DNA of 6,511 bases, taken from IMG/VR virus record IMGVR_UViG_2698536485_000005, positions 1 to 6,511 of that record. One strand, 5' to 3'. The position numbers and the translations under genes were made by a program. This document shows positions 1-6,511 of the stretch, piece by piece. Each line of letters starts with the position of its first letter. The stretch's first letter is position 1. This DNA comes from a virus (Duplodnaviria > Heunggongvirae > Uroviricota > Caudoviricetes). The notes beneath the pieces are model-generated. The model saw only the letters and a program-made list of their open reading frames with translations, was not told the origin of the DNA and ran no database searches.

Positions 1-151
1 AGAGCCGTGTTTATTGAGTCGGTATTCAGAGTCTGACCAGAAATTATTAATCTGGTGAAGTTTTTCCTCTGTCATTACGTCATGGTCGATTTCAATTTCT
101 ATTGATGCTTTCCAGTCGTAATCAATGATGTATTTTTTGATGTTTGACATC
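1..151 (-). CDS. Hypothetical protein, N-terminal 50 codons only (runs off the left edge of the window); start ATG at 151..149
   Basis: Open minus-strand frame from ATG (151) to the window edge: MSNIKKYIIDYDWKASIEIEIDHDVMTEEKLHQINNFWSDSEYRLNKHGS... GAGG about 9 nt upstream of the ATG; in-frame stop immediately upstream fixes the start. Not in the ORF track because it is partial. No family recognised. Confidence 0.45.
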
Positions 152-171
152 TGTTCATATCCTCACAGATA

Positions 172-197
172 AAAAATCGCCCTCACATTGGAGGGCA
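172..197 (-). terminator. Intrinsic (rho-independent) terminator on the minus strand, downstream of the 346..795 gene
   Basis: GC-rich 6-bp stem GCCCTC (180..185) / GAGGGC (192..197) with a 6-nt loop; on the minus strand the stem is followed directly by a run of six T (plus-strand A-run 172..177). Confidence 0.6.
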
Positions 198-258
198 AAG
201 AAGATTTCCAATAATCAGAACAAGTCGGCTCCTGTTTAGTTACGAGCGACATTGCTCC

Positions 259-286
259 GTGTATTCACTCGTTGGAATGAATACAC
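259..286. repeat. Perfect 9-bp inverted repeat GTGTATTCA-N10-TGAATACAC in the 3' untranslated region of the 346..795 gene
   Basis: Arms at 259..267 and 278..286 are exact reverse complements; no adjacent T-run, so it is not an obvious terminator. Could be a protein-binding site or an RNA stem-loop. Confidence 0.4.
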
Positions 287-345
287 AGTGCAGTGTTTAT
301 TCTGTTGTTTATGCCAAAAATAAAGGACGGTTATGCGGCCTGAAA

Positions 346-795
346 TTACTTAACCAATGATGCTGCATATTCGATAAGGTAAAGTTTTGGGGCCAGCCAA
401 ATTTTTAACCAAGTCATATTGGTTACTACACCAATAATAAAAATCCCCCACAGAGTCAAAACTCCAACCAATGGCATGATAAGAAGGTTAATATCTCCTT
501 TGCTATCCCAAACCATTGTCGGCCTGTATTTGGGATTTCCCATCTCCCATGAGTATCCTTCATCACCGATTTTACCTGTCTCAACTCTTTGGCACTGCTT
601 CTTCATAAACCAGAAAACCAGTGGGATTGTTAGAATGGCTATTAATGTTTTAATCAGACTGTCAACCATATTCCATAGCAGCAACTGATGAACAACATCA
701 GGAATCTGTGCCTGGCTAAATGAAACAGCCGCGTCTATTCCATTACTGGCTTTTTGCAGTAGTTCTACGAGAATCTTGTTTGCTTGTTCTTCCAT
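346..795 (-). CDS. Small integral membrane protein (149 aa, two predicted transmembrane helices), function unknown; candidate prophage exclusion/abortive-infection effector
   Basis: ATG start with AAGGTG 4 nt upstream on the minus strand. About 46 soluble N-terminal residues, hydrophobic helix LIKTLIAILTIPLVFWFM, about 38-residue loop, second hydrophobic helix INLLIMPLVGVLTLWGIFIIGVV, short C-terminal tail. A+T-rich relative to the replication genes. No family recognised from memory. Confidence 0.7.
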   Translation of the reverse strand: MEEQANKILVELLQKASNGIDAAVSFSQAQIPDVVHQLLLWNMVDSLIKTLIAILTIPLVFWFMKKQCQRVETGKIGDEGYSWEMGNPKYRPTMVWDSKGDINLLIMPLVGVLTLWGIFIIGVVTNMTWLKIWLAPKLYLIEYAASLVK

Positions 796-873
796 ATATC
801 ACCTTAAATAGTGGATTGCGGTAGTAAAGATTGTGCCTGTCTTTTAACCACATCAGGCTCGGTGGTTCTCGTG

Positions 874-925
874 TACCCCTACAGCGAGAAATCGGATAAA
901 CTCTATTCACCCCTACAGAGAGAAT
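874..925. repeat. Two near-identical 16-17 bp direct repeats (ACCCCTACAG[C/A]GAGAA) spaced 34 bp apart in the divergent intergenic region
   Basis: Copy 1 at 875..890 (ACCCCTACAGCGAGAA) and copy 2 at 909..924 (ACCCCTACAGAGAGAA); they lie between the divergent starts at 795 (minus) and 941 (plus), the second copy just upstream of the GGAG ribosome-binding site of the 941 gene. Confidence 0.5.
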
Positions 926-940
926 GATGGAGATTCACCG

Positions 941-1480
941 ATGAGTAACTGGTGGCAGGAACTATTACGTTTCTTCCTGCGTGGTCTTACGCTACAACAG
1001 TTAATTCATATGCTTATTATTTTAATTGCCTTGATAATAATCACCCCAGCATCAATTAAAGAGTGGGTAGATATAAGGAACCCCGAAATACTTCCAGATC
1101 ACTGGATGTATTACGCAATGCTTTTGTGTATCAGTTATGTTCTGAACAGGGTGATGGAGTTTATATTTCTGGCATCTTCAGACAGATATAAAAAATATCT
1201 CAGTAAGAGAGATGAGGCTAAAGTAATTGTGGAGACTGAGCACCTGTTCAATTCTCTGAGTATTCAGGAAAAAGAGGTTTTAGCATTTGCTGTTATGGCA
1301 AATAACAAAATTGTACTTAAGCACGGCGATCCGGTCGCTTTATCTCTTATGAGAAAAGGCCTTCTCCATCGCTCAGGTGTGACTTACAGCGCGTCAGGTA
1401 AAGAGAAATTTGTTATACCTGACGTCTGGTTCCATGAGTGTTATATGCGCTTTGCTGGTAAAGCTGATGAGCTAATTTAG
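941..1480 (+). CDS. Membrane-anchored protein (179 aa; two N-terminal TM helices plus about 100-aa soluble C-terminal domain); possible SieB-like superinfection exclusion protein
   Basis: ATG with GGAG 8 nt upstream. Hydrophobic segments LIHMLIILIALIIITPA and WMYYAMLLCISYVLNRVMEFIFLA. Lies next to the immunity region and convergent with the predicted pL, the arrangement I recall for sieB in lambda/P22/Rac. Size and topology fit SieB, but sequence homology was not verified. Confidence 0.6.
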   Translation: MSNWWQELLRFFLRGLTLQQLIHMLIILIALIIITPASIKEWVDIRNPEILPDHWMYYAMLLCISYVLNRVMEFIFLASSDRYKKYLSKRDEAKVIVETEHLFNSLSIQEKEVLAFAVMANNKIVLKHGDPVALSLMRKGLLHRSGVTYSASGKEKFVIPDVWFHECYMRFAGKADELI

Positions 1481-1594
1481 TTCCTCGACGGCGGGGGATC
1501 GTCATCTCGCTGTCAGTTGTTTTGATTTCCTGTTGCCTGCCGCGTAAAGAGCTTGTGTCACGAGATCGCTAACCCCGTATATAAAAACACTTCA

Positions 1595-1610
1595 ATAACT
1601 ATCAAGTTAT
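1595..1610. repeat. Perfect inverted repeat ATAACT-atca-AGTTAT in the pL leader region
   Basis: Exact 6-bp arms with a 4-bp spacer; a second perfect inverted repeat with the same half-site in the opposite arrangement (AGTTAT-aaa-ATAACT) lies at 1743..1757 beside OL. Confidence 0.4.
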
Positions 1611-1706
1611 GGAAATGTTCTTTTGTAGTGAGCAGCATTGCCGTTCATCCTGAACCCGCCGCGCTCCCGACGCATGGTTTAATGTCGCGCCGTTCGACAT
1701 GGCTTA

Positions 1707-1735
1707 ACTATATCCAAAGCTATTATTGATGTAAA
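1707..1735 (-). promoter_or_regulatory. pL-like early leftward promoter
   Basis: On the minus strand: -35 TTTACA (plus 1730..1735), 17-bp spacer, -10 TATAGT (plus 1707..1712); predicted start near 1700. Both hexamers overlap operator-like sites. Confidence 0.6.
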
Positions 1736-1749
1736 TAGCTATAGTTATA
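1709..1749. promoter_or_regulatory. OL operator sites (two recognisable 16-bp sites matching the OR half-site consensus)
   Basis: AATAGC-tata-GTTATA (1734..1749) and TATATC-caaa-GCTATT (1709..1724) match the OR consensus AATAGC-N4-GCTATT; centres are about 25 bp apart and overlap the pL -35 and -10. Confidence 0.5.
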
Positions 1750-1833
1750 AAATAACTCCTTTGGTTATTTAATCATTGATATCTAATGTAATTTATTTTT
1801 CTTGTATGTGAGATTTGGTGTTTTTGGGGCAAT

Positions 1834-1860
1834 AAAAAACCCGCAAAAAGCGGGTTTGTT
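1834..1860 (-). terminator. Intrinsic terminator immediately downstream of cI (minus strand), possibly weakly bidirectional
   Basis: Stem CCCGC (1840..1844) / GCGGG (1850..1854) with an AAAAA loop, flanked by an A-run (1834..1839) that gives a T-run after the stem on the minus strand; it sits about 20 nt past the cI stop (1877..1875). The plus-strand side has only an interrupted T-run. Confidence 0.65.
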
Positions 1861-1874
1861 GTGGTGTGATGAGG

Positions 1875-2606
1875 TTAGTAGTCAACTACAGACCACCAGA
1901 AGATTCTTCCGATGATCTCGATATCGCTTAGATTCTTTTCTTCTTGTGGGTATTCCAGTGAGTTAAAGCTTCTAATGCTTACCTTGTCAGGCCCTGATCG
2001 AAAGAGAATCTTAATGCGTTTCCAACCGTTCTCGTTAATGGCGTAAATCTTTCCGTCAACTATTTTCTTATCGTTGGTGTTAACAGCAACTGTTGTTCCA
2101 TCAGGAATGTTTGGCTCCATGCTGTTGCCACGAGCCGGAAAACAAACAACCCCGCTTCCATCACTGTTCGCACCAACTCTGCGAAGGGTTGATTTGGAGA
2201 AGCGCAACATAAAGCCGTTGTGATCTTCATCAATCACCCGACCATCCCCGCATGCAAACTCAATATCTTTAAGGTAAGGAATTTCAACTTCATCACCTCT
2301 TAAAGGCGTTCCTCCATCCCATGGGTCCAAATATCCCCACGTGCTTTCATGAGGAATAGAAGATTTTGGATTATAAGGTTCAACTCCCTCATCACGCATT
2401 GGCCCAGTTCCATCGGAAAGCCATTCCGTACGAACTCCAAGCACTTTTGATATTTCAAAAAGTTTGCGCGTATTGCGTGTTTTTCCAGACGTAAGTTTCC
2501 AGACGCTTGGCTGAGACATGCCAACAGCATTGCCAAGTGAAGCCTGAGTAAACCCAGCCTGATCCATCGCGTATGTAAGCCTTTGAGAAAAAGTATCTAG
2601 TTTCAT
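1875..2606 (-). CDS. cI: CI-type prophage repressor: N-terminal HTH DNA-binding domain plus C-terminal LexA-like S24 autopeptidase domain
   Basis: 243 aa. N-terminal HTH region (...GFTQASLGNAVGMSQPSVWKLTSGK...), C-terminal GNSMEP serine motif (Ser162) and downstream GWKRIK lysine, with a linker F-A-C-G about 42 residues before the Ser. Divergent from cro across an operator region; apparently leaderless start, as for lambda pRM transcripts. Confidence 0.93.
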   Translation of the reverse strand: MKLDTFSQRLTYAMDQAGFTQASLGNAVGMSQPSVWKLTSGKTRNTRKLFEISKVLGVRTEWLSDGTGPMRDEGVEPYNPKSSIPHESTWGYLDPWDGGTPLRGDEVEIPYLKDIEFACGDGRVIDEDHNGFMLRFSKSTLRRVGANSDGSGVVCFPARGNSMEPNIPDGTTVAVNTNDKKIVDGKIYAINENGWKRIKILFRSGPDKVSIRSFNSLEYPQEEKNLSDIEIIGRIFWWSVVDY

Positions 2607-2612
2607 CCGGAC

Positions 2613-2641
2613 AACCTATAGCTACAGCTATTATTAGTCAA
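2613..2641 (-). promoter_or_regulatory. pRM-like repressor maintenance promoter
   Basis: On the minus strand: -35 TTGACT (plus 2636..2641), 17-bp spacer, -10 TAGGTT (plus 2613..2618), placing the start at or next to the cI ATG (2606). No Shine-Dalgarno before cI. Confidence 0.5.
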
Positions 2642-2681
2642 ATACCTAAAGCTATTTACTTTCTGAATAGCTTTGGCTATT
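2617..2681. promoter_or_regulatory. OR operator region: three inverted-repeat operators (OR3, OR2, OR1)
   Basis: tATAGC-taca-GCTATt (2617..2632), AATACC-taaa-GCTATT (2641..2656), AATAGC-tttg-GCTATT (2666..2681); centre-to-centre spacing about 24-25 bp. The outer sites overlap the -10 elements of pRM and pR. Confidence 0.7.
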
Positions 2682-2683
2682 AT
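2655..2683 (+). promoter_or_regulatory. pR-like early rightward promoter
   Basis: -35 TTTACT (2655..2660), 17-bp spacer, -10 TATTAT (2678..2683); predicted start about 2690, followed by the cro AGGAG ribosome-binding site (2702..2706). Confidence 0.6.
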
Positions 2684-2714
2684 TCTGATTGTGAATTCAA
2701 CAGGAGTTATTTTT

Positions 2715-2945
2715 ATGGTCAACAAGGCTATTAAAGCGGCTATTGACTCAGTAGGAAGTCAGCAAAAGTTAGCTGATGCCTGCGGTGTTAAGCAGCCGTC
2801 TGTATGGGCTTGGTTGCATGGGAAGAAAAGGGTATCCGCTGAAAATGCCAAGCGCATTGAAATGGCTACCAATGGAAGCGTCCCTGCATACCTGATTCGC
2901 CCTGATTTATCCGCTTTGTTCCCCAATCCGAACAAAGCAGCTTAA
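2715..2945 (+). CDS. cro: Cro-like small HTH repressor (76 aa)
   Basis: ATG at 2715 with AGGAG 8 nt upstream (the ORF-track start at 2673 is a TTG lying inside the operators/promoter). First rightward gene after OR/pR; HTH segment QQKLADACGVKQPSVWAWLHGKK shares the QPSVW motif with the CI recognition region. Not lambda-Cro-like in sequence; the call rests on position and HTH. Confidence 0.8.
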   Translation: MVNKAIKAAIDSVGSQQKLADACGVKQPSVWAWLHGKKRVSAENAKRIEMATNGSVPAYLIRPDLSALFPNPNKAA

Positions 2946-3064
2946 TAAAGCAAATCTTTATACCGAACGGCCCGGTATACGGTCGGGTGCCCGGCGTGGT
3001 CAAGGATGACTGTCAATGGTGCACGATAAAAACCCAAATTATTTATCTATGGAGATAGTAAGAA

Positions 3065-3361
3065 ATGACACAAGCAAGTTACAGCAAGCCAACACAGCGA
3101 GAAATTGATCGCGCTGAAACTGATTTACTCATCAACCTGTCAACGCTTACCCAGCGCGGTCTGGCAAAGATGATTGGCTGTCATGAATCGAAGATAAGCA
3201 GAACGGACTGGAGATTTATTGCTTCGGTCTTGTGTGCTTTCGGAATGGCATCAGATATCAGTCCGATTAGCAGGGCTTTTAAGTATGCGCTTGATGGACT
3301 CACCAATAAAAAACGCCCGGCGGCAACCGAGCGTTCTGAACAAATACAAATGGAATTTTAA
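3065..3361 (+). CDS. cII: CII-family transcriptional activator (98 aa)
   Basis: GGAGA ribosome-binding site 9 nt upstream. The C-terminal about 20 residues (LTNKKRPAATERSEQIQMEF) match the lambda CII C-terminus as I remember it; the N-terminal two-thirds differ from lambda CII. Position directly after cro is canonical. Confidence 0.85.
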   Translation: MTQASYSKPTQREIDRAETDLLINLSTLTQRGLAKMIGCHESKISRTDWRFIASVLCAFGMASDISPISRAFKYALDGLTNKKRPAATERSEQIQMEF

Positions 3362-3383
3362 TAACATCCAACGAGGTAATTAT

Positions 3384-3656
3384 ATGCGAAACAAAGGCTT
3401 TAATCCACCTGATACACACAAAGAAGTTAAGCGTTTGCGCTTCCTTCGTTCCATTGATGAAAGAACTCAAATCTCTTTTGTGAAAGTTGCCAGAACTGAG
3501 CTTCTGAAGGCTGAGGCAAGGGCGTTGCTCCCGTCTCTACCAAAAGAGGAGGGGTATACGTTCATTCCAAACGCATTTCTGGAAAAGCTGCTCAAAGAAG
3601 ACATATCCGTAAGTCAGTTTAACGATGTTCTTAAGGTCTTTCGTCAAGGCAGGTAG
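3384..3656 (+). CDS. Hypothetical protein (90 aa) between cII and the replication initiator
   Basis: ATG at 3384 with GAGG 7 nt upstream; stop TAG at 3654..3656, 2 nt before the O-like start. The ORF-track entry 3219..3656 is the same frame extended upstream into cII and is not preferred. No family recognised. Confidence 0.55.
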   Translation: MRNKGFNPPDTHKEVKRLRFLRSIDERTQISFVKVARTELLKAEARALLPSLPKEEGYTFIPNAFLEKLLKEDISVSQFNDVLKVFRQGR

Positions 3657-3658
3657 TT

Positions 3659-4606
3659 ATGAGCAATACAGCAAAAATCTACGATTTCAGCGCCGCACAC
3701 GAGCGCAGGAGCAACAGGATGGAGAACCAGAAAACTGGTTACATTCCGTTGTACCGGAGCATTCTGAAACAGTCATGGGCGAAAGATGTTTATCTTCGCA
3801 CCCTGTGGGAAAACCTTCTCCTGAATGCCGCCAGAAAGCCATACAAAGCGAATTTCAAAGGTCATGAATGGCATCTGCAACCCGGTCAACTGGTTGTGAC
3901 AGCAGCTGATTTAGGTCTTCAGTTATGCGACAGGCATGGCAAGCCGGCAAGCCGTGATCAGGTTGAGCGGATGCTTCAGGTTTTTGTGAAAGAGGGGATG
4001 ATCTCCATTGATGGAGAGAAGCAAAAAGGTCGTGTGATCACCATCACAAATTACCATGAATACGCTCAAAAAATGGACAATTCACCCGCACATGATGCCG
4101 CACAAACAACCGCACATGATGCCGCACATGATGAAGACAGTAATGGCGCGGCTTTCAGCGTACATGCCGCACATGAAAGCGCACATGAAGCCGCACAAAC
4201 AACCGCACATCATGAACAAGAAGGTATTAACAAGAATATAAATAATACCCCCCTACCCCCCAATGGGGGCGGCGATGGGCAGGTTAAACCTGAACGTCGC
4301 AAGGCAGAACGCATCGACTACGAATCCTTCCTGAACGCCTACAACACCGAAGTCGGTGACAGACTGCCACACGCTGTTGCGGTCAACGAGAAACGCAAAC
4401 GCCGCCTGAAGAAAATCATCCCGCAACTGAAAACGCCAAACGTGGACGGTTTCAGAGCGTATGTCAGGGCGTTTGTGCATCAGGCCAAGCCGTTTTACTT
4501 CGGAGACAACGACACGGGCTGGACGGCCGATTTTGATTACCTGCTGAGAGAAGATTCGTTAACGGGAGTTCGGGAAGGGAAGTTTGCAGACAGGGGGATT
4601 GCATGA
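3659..4606 (+). CDS. O-like replication initiator protein (315 aa) with the internal origin
   Basis: N-terminus [10 protein letters not shown]... resembles the lambda O N-terminus (MTNTAKI...). The middle of the gene carries tandem 12-bp DNA repeats encoding an Ala/His/Asp-rich linker, followed by an AT-rich tract; the stop overlaps the helicase start (ATGA). Confidence 0.88.
4086..4250. repeat. Replication origin: eight 12-bp iteron-like direct repeats in two blocks of four, followed by an A+T-rich unwinding region
   Basis: Block 1 at 4086..4133 (CCGCACATGATG, CCGCACAAACAA, CCGCACATGATG, CCGCACATGATG); block 2 at 4167..4214 (CCGCACATGAAA, GCGCACATGAAG, CCGCACAAACAA, CCGCACATCATG); AT-rich stretch 4215..4250; then a CCCCC...GGGGG element at 4251..4270. 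Same iteron-plus-AT-tract-inside-O layout as ori-lambda. Confidence 0.7.
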
Positions 4607-5979
4607 GACAGGATATCGAAGCGAGCGTTATCGGTGGCCTGCTGATTGGTGGATTAACACCAACCGCCAGCGACGTTCTGGCAACACTGGAGCCGGAAGC
4701 GTTTTCAATTCCGCTCTACCGGAAAGCCTTCGAGGTTATCCGCAAGCAGGCGAGAAACAGAAACCTAATCGATGCGCTGATGGTTGCCGAGGCGTGCGGA
4801 GAGGAGCATTTCACGTCAATCCTGATGACCAGCAAAAACTGCCCGAGTGCCGCAAACCTGAAGGGATATGCCGGAATGGTCGCGGATAACTATCACCGCC
4901 GTCTGGTGCTGGAAATCATGGATGAAATGCGTGAACCAATTCAGAGCGGAACCATCGACGCATCGAGTCAGGCGATGGATGAACTTGTAAAACGTCTCTC
5001 AGCCATCAGAAAGCCCCGTGACGAGGTTAAACCTGTACGGTTAGGGGAAATCATTACTGACTACACTGACACGCTTGACAGGCGTCTGAGGAACGGAGAA
5101 GAGTCAGATACCCTGAAGACCGGAATCGAAGAACTTGATGCCATCACCGGAGGGATGAACGCGGAAGACCTGGTGATAATCGCTGCTCGTCCTGGTATGG
5201 GGAAAACCGAGCTGGCGCTGAAGATTGCCGAAGGCGTGGCAAGTCGTGTTATTCCTGGTTCTGACGTCCGGCGCGGAGTATTGATTTTCTCGATGGAAAT
5301 GAGCGCATTGCAGATTGCAGAGCGAAGCATTGCCAACGCCGGGAGGATGTCGGTTAGCGTACTGCGAAATCCTGCATCAATGGATGACGAGGGCTGGGCA
5401 CGTGTTGCTAACGGCATGAGTCAGCTTGCAGATTTGGATGTATGGGTAGTCGATGCCTCGCGGTTATCGGTCGAAGAAATACGCTCAATCGCAGAACGGC
5501 ACAAACAGGAAAATCCAAACCTCTCACTCATCATGGCGGATTATCTTGGCCTGATTGAGAAGCCGAAAGCAGACCGCAACGACCTCGCAATTGCTCACAT
5601 CTCAGGAAGCCTGAAGGCGATGGCGAAAGACCTGAAAACACCGGTTATCTCCCTAAGTCAGCTTTCGCGCGATGTTGAGAAGCGACCAAACAAACGCCCG
5701 ACAAACGCAGATTTGCGTGATTCAGGAAGCATTGAGCAGGACGCAGACTCAATCATCATGCTCTATCGGGAAGCGGTATATGACGAGAACAGTAGCGCCG
5801 CGCCATTTGCTGAAATCATCGTGACGAAAAACCGTTTTGGCTCACTTGGTACGGTTTACCAGCGGTTCTGCAACGGACACTTTGTTGCATGTGACCAGGA
5901 TGAAGCCAGACAGATTTGCACAGCATCAAATGCGCCTGCTGCGCGTGGCAGACGATATGCACAAGGGGCGGACGTATGA
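4603..5979 (+). CDS. DnaB-family replicative DNA helicase (458 aa; P22 gene-12-type phage helicase)
   Basis: AGGGGGA ribosome-binding site 6 nt upstream. DnaB N-terminal domain motifs (IGGLL..., [15 protein letters not shown]), Walker [13 protein letters not shown], and C-terminal [41 protein letters not shown] typical of DnaB helicases. Confidence 0.95.
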
Positions 5980-6004
5980 CCATCTACATCACTGAGCTAA
6001 TAAC

Positions 6005-6036
6005 AGGGGCTATTTACACAGTAGCCCTTTTTTATT
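6005..6036 (+). terminator. Intrinsic terminator after the helicase gene (tR2-like position, before the nin region)
   Basis: Stem GGGCTA (6007..6012) / TAGCCC (6022..6027) with a 9-nt loop, followed by TTTTTT (6028..6033). Confidence 0.6.
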
Positions 6037-6057
6037 GGATTAAGAACGAGGGGGATC

Positions 6058-6273
6058 ATGATGGACACTGTTAACGGAATGTGTTCAGACGCACCGCGTG
6101 CCAAAAAATGTAAATGCGGAAAATCACCGACAATATTTGACATGGAGAACGGGTGCCAAATCTACTGCGCTAACCACGCCGCTGTGGCGGCCGCGAATTA
6201 TCGCAGTGCGGTAACGGAGTGGAATAACCTGAAATCTGTTAGAGAGGGAAGTCATGAAAAAACTAACCTTTGA
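6058..6273 (+). CDS. Small Cys-rich hypothetical protein (71 aa), possible zinc-binding
   Basis: GAGGGGG ribosome-binding site just upstream of ATG 6058. Five Cys arranged C-x8-C-x-C-x12-C-x3-C; the 3' end overlaps the ninB start by 20 nt. No family recognised. Confidence 0.55.
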   Translation: MMDTVNGMCSDAPRAKKCKCGKSPTIFDMENGCQIYCANHAAVAAANYRSAVTEWNNLKSVREGSHEKTNL

Positions 6274-6511
6274 AATTCGATCTCCAGCACATCAGCAAAA
6301 CGCTATTCACGCAGTACAGCAAATCCTTCCAGACCCAACCAAACCAATCGTAGTAACCATTCAGGAGCGCAACCGCAGCTTAGACCAGAATCGAAAGCTT
6401 TGGGCTTGCCTTGGTGACGTTTCTCGTCAGGTTGAATGGCATGGTCGCTGGCTGGATGCAGAAAGCTGGAAGTGCGTTTTTACAGCAGCATTAAAGCAGC
6501 AGGATGTTGTT
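6254..6511 (+). CDS. ninB: NinB (Orf-family recombination mediator), N-terminal 86 codons; continues past the right edge
   Basis: Translation MKKLTFEIRSPAHQQNAIHAVQQILPDPTKPIVVTIQERNRSLDQNRKLWACLGDVSRQVEWHGRWLDAESWKCVFTAALKQQDVV matches lambda NinB as I recall it; GAGGGA ribosome-binding site upstream; open to the window end. Not in the ORF track because it is partial. Confidence 0.9.
   Translation, partial: MKKLTFEIRSPAHQQNAIHAVQQILPDPTKPIVVTIQERNRSLDQNRKLWACLGDVSRQVEWHGRWLDAESWKCVFTAALKQQDVV

Follow-up and report, generated by a model that had tools for sequence, protein, structure and literature searches.

A putative CI/Cro immunity cassette with its own operator specificity in the HK022-like early region of a lambdoid Escherichia coli prophage

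The DNA analysed here, a stretch of 6,511 nucleotides that we refer to as the window (positions 1 to 6,511 of IMG/VR virus record IMGVR_UViG_2698536485_000005), is the 6.5-kb early region of a lambdoid, HK022-like prophage of E. coli. Judged from its sequence, the segment from about 1705 to 2960 is very probably the immunity cassette of this temperate prophage, built as a CI/Cro switch. It shows the features by which lambdoid immunity regions are recognised: a divergently oriented pair consisting of a helix-turn-helix (HTH)-S24 repressor and Cro, three palindromes that would form the right operator (OR), and a left operator (OL) lying over the leftward promoter pL. The original prediction for the gap between cI and cro was that of a complete lambda-style genetic switch with a distinct operator specificity. 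A bistable CI/Cro switch with a specificity of its own is indeed supported by the protein domains, by the geometry of operators and promoters, by the conservation footprint in related phages, and by the covariation of recognition helices with operator half-sites. The words "complete lambda-style" fit the operator switch, which is lambda-like, but are an overstatement for the whole, as antitermination appears to be of the HK022 put-RNA type, without N or nut.

Operators and promoters

Three operators of the type AATAGC-N4-GCTATT had been predicted in the 108-bp cI-cro gap (2607-2714), and they are present there at centre spacings of 24 and 25 bp (OR3, OR2 and OR1; Table 1). The same half-site had been predicted to recur at OL, and this too is what we found: two sites, 25 bp apart, lie over a promoter that matches the consensus at 10 of 12 positions, although they match the pattern less well than the OR sites do. 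Compared with shuffled sequences, the window is strongly enriched in such sites. Four matches with at most one mismatch to AATAGC-N4-GCTATT were found against 0.01 expected, and seven with at most two mismatches against 0.27 expected. The proposed consensus itself needs some revision, because the conserved core is better described as (A/T)ATAGCT. When the outermost base of the 16-mer is taken as +1, which is the register chosen in this analysis, the ten half-sites tabulated have A or T at +1; A at +2, T at +3, A at +4 and C at +6 are each present in 10/10, G at +5 in 7/10, and T at +7 in 8/10.

Some further candidate sites were rejected. The fourth near-perfect match in the window, AATAACAGGGGCTATT at 5999-6014 (one mismatch), is located in a GGGCTA...TAGCCC hairpin that is followed by a T run directly after the helicase gene. 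An identical 16-mer is carried by HK97, which is absent from the CI homologues listed and presumably has another immunity; therefore, this terminator-like hairpin is not regarded as an immunity-specific operator. A site with two mismatches at 724-739, inside the open reading frame (ORF) at 346-795, was taken as a chance match, given that 0.27 were expected and that the shuffles gave up to two. The spacing of the inverted repeat AAATAAC-N7-GTTATTT at 1750-1770 is wrong for an operator. A possible degenerate third OL site (Table 1) was read from the sequence; two of the relatives described below (L030 and L034) have a two-mismatch site at the equivalent offset of 20 bp from OL2.

The operators overlap the hexamers of two divergent promoters, as predicted: the rightward promoter pR (TTTACT/TATTAT), which was detected by the promoter scan, and the putative promoter of repressor maintenance, pRM (TTGACT/TAGGTT), which was identified by reading the sequence and is missing from the scan output because its -10 hexamer matches at 3/6 positions. 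The -35 hexamer of pRM is conserved in the relatives. On the other side of cI, pL is the best promoter-like site of its region, and it is found at the same place as the annotated pL of HK022. All three -10 hexamers share bases with a half-site. The ATG of cI (2606..2604) lies 7 nt past the -10 hexamer of pRM and is not preceded by a Shine-Dalgarno sequence, and the distance between this hexamer and the ATG is 6-7 nt in diverged relatives too. These observations are consistent with the prediction of a leaderless cI mRNA that would start at or beside the AUG.

The geometry is regular. If transcription is assumed to start about 7 nt after each -10 hexamer, the centres of OR1, OR2 and OR3 fall at about -17, -42 and -66 from the start of pR and at about -66, -42 and -19 from that of pRM, and those of OL1 and OL2 at about -17 and -42 from the start of pL. 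Operator positions of about -17, -42 and -66 are essentially the arrangement of lambda.

CI and Cro

Residues 6-68 of CI align with the DNA-binding domain of the 434 repressor (E 3e-8), such that SQPSVWKLTSG of CI falls over TQQSIEQLENG and QPSVW over QQSIE. Therefore, QPSVW corresponds to the first five positions of the CI recognition helix, helix 3. The recognition helix reads Q32-P-S-V-W-K-L in CI and Q27-P-S-V-W-A-W-L in Cro. Thus, as had been noticed from the sequence, the QPSVW motif is present in the HTH regions of both proteins (residues 32-36 of CI and 27-31 of Cro), where it starts both recognition helices and makes their positions H1-H5 the same. Across 87 Cro homologues from Enterobacterales hardly any variation is seen in the helix QP(S/T)VW(A/S/G)W, with overall identity going down to ~60%. 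An AlphaFold model of Cro built with 43 homologues (predicted local distance difference test, pLDDT, 88.8) contains five helices, of which helix 3 spans residues 27-34 (QPSVWAWL), and Cro is hence predicted to be all-alpha. Its best solved match is Xfaso 1 Cro from a Xylella prophage (PDB 3BD1; 41% identity, template modelling (TM) scores 0.73/0.85, root-mean-square deviation 1.4 Å over 61 columns), the helix of which reads RQSAISNW where the window Cro has KQPSVWAW.

The C-terminal part of CI matches Peptidase_S24 (E 4e-15) and contains a FACG cleavage-site motif as well as a GNSMEP serine motif. All phi80-type CI proteins in the alignment keep FACGDG, GNSMEP and the lysine motif KR(I/L)K unchanged. 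With both the cleavage site and the Ser/Lys dyad present, CI would fit a self-cleaving repressor. In phi80, RecA-pathway cleavage of CI takes place at Cys-Gly and not at Ala-Gly, and the Cys-Gly pair of the phi80-type CI proteins aligns with C119-G120 of the window CI. A literature search on the Cys-Gly cleavage of phi80 CI gave only noise from strain genotypes.

Conservation footprint in relatives

Searching with CI yielded 29 loci from IMG/VR and 4 from genomes. From these, 13 distinct cI-cro intergenic sequences, whose CI proteins are 63-100% identical and retain QPSVW, were aligned. Among these 13 relatives, 31/36 half-site positions are invariant, compared with 2/12 central positions and 21/60 other intergenic positions (Fisher p ~1e-7, a rough value that overstates independence, given that the relatives are phylogenetically related). 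After removal of the promoter hexamers and the Shine-Dalgarno sequence, 22/27 half-site positions are invariant versus 8/51 others. The centre of OR3 is TACA, CTAA, CGTA, TCAA or CATA in different relatives, with both half-sites fixed, which is the pattern that would be expected of a dyad operator. For OR1, 12 of the 13 relatives agree at 15/16 bases; L018 departs at one central base and L012, the most distant relative, at several. On the left side, OL1 is identical in relatives whose CI proteins are 82-92% identical, and a site of the OL2 type is found at the 25-bp offset from OL1 in all relatives with QPSVW or QPTIW.

One IMG/VR locus, L034, has an OR3 centre of 3 bp and not 4 (TATAGC-AAA-GCTATT) and is otherwise identical to L030 and L031. 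This variant may represent an OR3-defective switch or a sequencing error.

Covariation of recognition helices and half-sites

In sister clades that share the same gene layout, recognition helix and half-site change in a coordinated manner. The window and its close relatives combine QPSVWK in CI and QPSVWAW in Cro with ATAGC. The Pantoea prophages and ASU11 have QPTIWR in CI and QPSVS(R/Y)W in Cro, again with ATAGC. A third group (L010, L043, L044 and L047) has QPAIQKM in CI and QPAVHKW in Cro and possesses three (A/T)ATAAC-N4-GTTAT sites in the same layout, and a fourth group, with QAAIQK in CI and QAAVQKW in Cro, has half-sites of the ACAACC type (UPF_BP1, as well as L035 and phiEt88, whose CI helices read QAGIQK and QANIQK, respectively). 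The QPA clade, with operators (A/T)ATAAC-N4-GTTAT(G), represents a sister immunity type that differs from the window by a covariation of one residue with one base.

The pairings of the Cro evolutionary code (Hall, Lefevre & Cordes 2005) that are summarised in PMC6649833 are Gln H1 with adenine at +2, Ser or Thr H3 with guanine at +5, Ala H3 with adenine at +5, and Lys H6 with cytosine at +6. The window sites agree with all three of these that apply, with A at +2 in 10/10, G at +5 in 7/10 and C at +6 in 10/10 half-sites, and the change from QPS to QPA tracks exactly the change from G to A at +5. The covariation fits the published code. We tentatively raise the possibility, which we do not consider the likelier outcome, that the family of phi80-type CI and YdaS-type Cro proteins constitutes a series of naturally occurring specificity switches, with CI and Cro altering the same helix residues in concert with one half-site base; possibly, T at +3 likewise goes with Pro H2, and C with Ala H2. 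If true, this series would carry the published Cro code over to the CI paralogue and add a helix position to it. A further consequence would be the first tractable example of the pairing between Ser H3 and guanine at +5, a pairing that, according to PMC6649833, no cocrystal structure of a true member of the Cro lineage has shown so far. Together with the QPA and QAA clades, the module offers a clean natural test of how single HTH-helix residues re-specify single base pairs in CI and Cro at once.

Proposed working of the switch

For the working of the switch, we infer operator binding by CI and Cro, cooperativity of CI, activation of pRM, the order of site occupancy by Cro, cleavage that depends on RecA, and heteroimmunity towards the QPTIW clade. 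In a lysogen, CI dimers would read (A/T)ATAGC by means of QPSVWK and bind the dyads of OR1/OR2 and OL1/OL2; this binding would probably be cooperative by way of the C-terminal domain. Bound CI would cover the -10 and -35 hexamers of pR and pL and thereby keep the early genes off, and CI on OR2, at about -42 of pRM, could stimulate transcription of cI into a leaderless mRNA. High CI levels would lead to occupation of OR3, which lies inside pRM, and lower cI expression. Following DNA damage, activated RecA would stimulate CI to cut itself at the Cys-Gly bond in FACGDG by means of its S24 Ser/Lys dyad. After this cleavage pR would fire, and Cro, as an all-alpha HTH dimer with the helix QPSVWAW, would bind the same sites and repress pRM. 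The transcripts from pL and pR would be made resistant to termination by putL and putR RNAs acting in cis, in the manner of HK022, and not via N. Upon infection, CII made from pR would activate the promoter of repressor establishment, pRE, inside the start of cII, by which CI synthesis would be established.

Several observations weigh against parts of this proposal, besides the shared ancestry that lies behind the footprint statistics. The helices of Cro and CI differ from H6 onward, and the site preferences of Cro may therefore differ. The -10 hexamer of pRM is poor (3/6 positions), which is why the scan missed this promoter. OL1 and OL2 deviate from the pattern at two positions each, and a clear OL3 is missing. 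In the alignment, Ser23 of CI takes the place of Glu19, a helix-2 residue of the 434 repressor. If activation of the 434 type depends on this acidic residue, activation of pRM by CI is uncertain here. From the side of the literature, the sole paper on a phage carrying nearly the same cassette, APC_JM3.2, is a genome announcement, and our search found no paper on the recognition-helix motif QPSVW.

Alternative explanations

One may ask whether the ATAGC/GCTAT sequences are maintained as promoter hexamers or as AT-rich promoter architecture, and not as binding sites for CI and Cro, given that pR, pL and pRM share bases with half-sites in their -10 hexamers (TATTAT, TATAGT and TAGGTT), and pR also in its -35. 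The footprint makes this extremely improbable. Half-site positions outside the hexamers are invariant far more often than the remaining positions (22/27 versus 8/51), the OR3 half-sites fall in the spacer of pRM, which is little constrained by RNA polymerase, and the dyad and the fixed centre length of 4 bp are kept while the sequence of the centre varies. Moreover, the half-site changes together with the recognition helix in sister clades, and this also bears on the idea that CI uses the five sites and Cro does so asymmetrically, binding one operator or a shifted or longer site, in which case the shared QPSVW would merely reflect ancestry. The Cro of the telomere phage PY54 provides a precedent, since according to PMC4488713 it binds a single operator site with high specificity. 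Furthermore, H6-H7 are A-W in Cro and K-L in CI, and the two scaffolds, an all-alpha Cro and a CI of the 434 type, differ as well. However, H1-H5 are the same in CI and Cro and nearly invariant over the 87 Cro homologues, and the step from QPS to QPA in CI is paralleled both by Cro and by the half-site, so we regard asymmetric use of the sites by Cro as unlikely and favour a common half-site for the two proteins.

A further alternative is that the cassette does not define a separate immunity group and that the clade of ASU11 and the Pantoea prophages (CI ~55% identical, QPTIWR) is partly cross-immune with it. ASU11, L011 and L036-L040 do carry TATAGCCTCCGCTATT and AATAGCATATGCTATT, at 0-2 mismatches to the pattern, and they have paired OL-like sites 25 bp apart, likewise with 0-2 mismatches. 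On the other hand, the outer OR sites of this clade are ~58 bp apart with no clear 16-bp dyad between them, H4-H6 of the CI helix and the Cro helix (QPSVS(R/Y)W) differ, as do the preferred centre and the flanking bases, and a common half-site core alone does not give cross-repression. All in all, partial cross-immunity seems rather improbable to us, and we prefer to consider the cassette as a separate immunity group. What does not stand is the notion that the specificity is unique to this module, because the second CI clade, ~55% identical and with the helix QPTIW, shares the ATAGC consensus. The existence of a second lineage ~55% identical with the same consensus could mean that there is cross-immunity between otherwise unrelated prophages.

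Genomic context

The cassette, about 1.25 kb long (~1705-2960), is located between HK022-type putL and putR elements (Table 1). The window is 95-96% identical to HK022, O276 and HK75 in the left flank, 1629-1704, and again from ~2961. Homology to HK022 ends at the -10 hexamer of pL and restarts 16 nt past the stop codon of cro. These borders are as would be expected of an immunity module that was swapped while putL and putR were kept. The putL stretch (1629-1704) has ~96% identity to HK022 and O276; putR is identical to O276 and HK022 over the annotated element, and the two differences in the aligned segment 2961-3090 both lie further right. Because Rfam has no put family, the assignment of putL and putR rests on DNA identity to the annotated elements of HK022 and O276; an Rfam scan of the window gave only sub-threshold chance matches (mir-7927, Yfr1 and, at the cI terminator, a Trp leader). 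When putL and putR were folded by minimum free energy, the z values were 0.15 and 0.28, no better than for shuffled sequences, and a small stem of putL did not stand out. Compared with HK022, putL carries paired substitutions (AGACG...CGTCT to TGTCG...CGACA) that would preserve this small stem.

No N-like ORF is present in the ORF list between pL and 941, and the region thus lacks the N/nut arrangement of lambda. We attribute the absence of N and nut to the position of the cassette between HK022-type putL and putR, and antitermination is expected to be RNA-based because the flanks (putL, putR, cII and pRE) are 95-96% identical to HK022. To the left of putL (941-1625) the window diverges from both HK022 and APC_JM3.2 and has sieB in place of nun; this second mosaic junction falls exactly at the end of putL. 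To the right, a CII-dependent establishment promoter is suggested by a TTGC-N6-TTGC motif on the minus strand (GCAA at 3074-3077 and 3084-3087), with the -10 hexamer at 3055-3060, where pE/oE is annotated in HK022. The cI terminator is strong and lies directly after cI, and there are no rex genes.

Table 1. Features of the window, from left to right
Feature	Position	Strand	Remarks
DUF2528 gene, end	1-150	minus	
Membrane-like ORF	346-795	minus	no assignment
sieB	941-1480	plus	Pfam SieB
sieB terminator	1487-1514		terminator scan
putL-like antiterminator RNA element, HK022 type	1630..1692	minus	downstream of pL; O276 annotation transferred
pL	1707..1735	minus	TTTACA (1735..1730)-17-TATAGT (1712..1707); promoter scan, 10/12 positions
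OL1	1709-1724		TATATCCAAAGCTATT; 2 mismatches; overlaps pL -10
OL2	1734-1749		AATAGCTATAGTTATA; 2 mismatches; shares 2 bp with pL -35; 25 bp from OL1
Possible degenerate OL3	1754-1769		AACTCCTTTGGTTATT; 4 mismatches; 20 bp from OL2; weak, read from sequence, below any threshold
Intrinsic terminator after cI	1837..1857	minus	terminator scan; 8-bp stem, 5 GC pairs, then T run
cI, 243 aa	1875..2606	minus	Pfam HTH_3 and Peptidase_S24
Putative pRM	2613..2641	minus	TTGACT (2641..2636)-17-TAGGTT (2618..2613); read from sequence
OR3	2617-2632		TATAGCTACAGCTATT; 1 mismatch; inside pRM spacer and -10
OR2	2641-2656		AATACCTAAAGCTATT; 1 mismatch; shares 2 bp with pR -35 and 1 bp with pRM -35
pR	2655-2683	plus	TTTACT-17-TATTAT; promoter scan; both hexamers invariant in relatives
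OR1	2666-2681		AATAGCTTTGGCTATT; 0 mismatches, perfect consensus; overlaps pR -10
cro, 76 aa	2715..2945	plus	Pfam YdaS_toxin, P22_Cro, HTH_3; AGGAG at 2702-2706
putR-like antiterminator RNA element, HK022 type	2968..3024	plus	downstream of cro
pRE-like promoter with CII sites	3055..3087	minus	HK022 X16093 pE/oE annotation transferred by alignment
cII activator	3065..3361	plus	Pfam Phage_CII, E 6e-36
90-aa ORF	3384-3656		no Pfam family; between cII and O-like gene
O-like replication gene	3659-4606		
DnaB-type helicase gene	4603-5979		

The nin region begins after the helicase gene, at the right end of the window. APC_JM3.2 has another short hypothetical gene at the place of the 90-aa ORF. The divergent gap between the ORF at 346-795 and sieB contains a 16-nt direct repeat, ACCCCTACAG(C/A)GAGAA, at 875-890 and 909-924, with the copies 34 nt apart; the repeat could be a binding site for a regulator or a promoter element. 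Within the O-like replication gene, repeats with a period of 12 nt, CCGCACATGA(T/A)G, are present at 4086-4228. They encode the AHDAA/AHEAA peptide repeats of the O-like protein and are probably iterons of the replication origin.

Distribution and significance

Escherichia phage APC_JM3.2 and Wanchaivirus PDP110P2 carry the cassette with 98-99% identity. Beyond these two, we found no deposited phage with a CI of more than 63% or a Cro of more than 61% identity. Among 5,426 complete E. coli genomes, 33 (~0.6%) contain the immunity module. Two places match the immunity region in E. coli E10 (NZ_CM143887.1); its chromosome may hold a pair of prophages with the same immunity type, or a complete copy plus a partial one. 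The annotation of APC_JM3.2 describes CI merely as an HTH/S24 protein and Cro as an "antirepressor". Our literature search found no paper that describes the cassette, and nothing relevant for the half-site strings AATAGC/GCTATT in the context of operators, repressors or phages. Thus, this is an immunity type that has been sequenced before and never studied, and it belongs to the lambdoid family and is not a new kind of system. The prediction of a distinct specificity stands in the sense that half-sites and helices differ from those of the characterised phages compared, but not in the sense of uniqueness, as the same modules are present in GenBank phages and prophages.

The module leaves the understanding of lambdoid switches unchanged. 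It adds one more well-defined immunity type, found in at least two isolated phages, to the lambdoid catalogue. It might serve to predict superinfection immunity among prophages, or the repressor and its operator might be used as an orthogonal pair.

Comparison with known systems

The cassette resembles that of lambda in having divergent cI and cro genes, a tripartite OR, an OL over pL, an S24 self-cleaving CI, CII with pRE, and an apparently leaderless cI. It differs from lambda in its operators, which are 16 bp long with the dyad between base pairs, whereas those of lambda are 17 bp, and in its half-site, ATAGC instead of TATCAC. The Cro of lambda is alpha+beta, whereas the window Cro is all-alpha in the model and the N-terminal domain of CI is of the 434 type. 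Also unlike lambda, the window lacks N/nut and rexAB, and has a terminator directly after cI.

The likeness to 434 lies in CI, whose N-terminal domain is a clear homologue (E 3e-8), and in the recognition helices, which in both systems start with the same residues in repressor and Cro; the two proteins are expected to recognise a common half-site. The recognition helices of 434 are QQSIEQL and QQSIQLI. The systems differ in helix and half-site, QQSI and ACAA-N6 in 434 against QPSVW and ATAGC-N4 in the window, and the window Cro belongs to the P22/YdaS Cro lineage, not to the 434 type, which is a five-helix paralogue of CI. The CI proteins of phi80 and its relatives HK225, UPF_BP1, phiEt88 and ASU11 are 51-63% identical to the window CI and have a strongly conserved C-terminal domain, but their N-terminal recognition helices are different, as are the operators; phi80 itself has SPQTVNNW at the position of the recognition helix and an intergenic region without ATAGC. 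With respect to HK022, the whole OL-cI-OR-cro cassette is replaced, and nun was not found beside putL, where the sieB module is located.

By sequence, the nearest characterised operator is that of N15. The consensus operator of N15 Cro, TTATAGCT|AGCTATAA, has the same ATAGCT core (PMC6649833); its dyad likewise falls between base pairs, and N15 Cro has an all-alpha fold. The cores abut in N15, whereas those of the window are 2 bp further apart (ATAGCT-N2-AGCTAT). In the N15 Cro helix, H0 to H3 are occupied by Thr, Pro, Gly and Ala, and H5 to H7 by Tyr, Gln and Trp; this helix reads the core with its register shifted by one position (PMC6649833). Identity with the N15 specificity was rejected on the spacing, 2 bp larger in the window, and on the helix QPSVWAW, and cross-recognition is not expected because helix, spacing and register differ.

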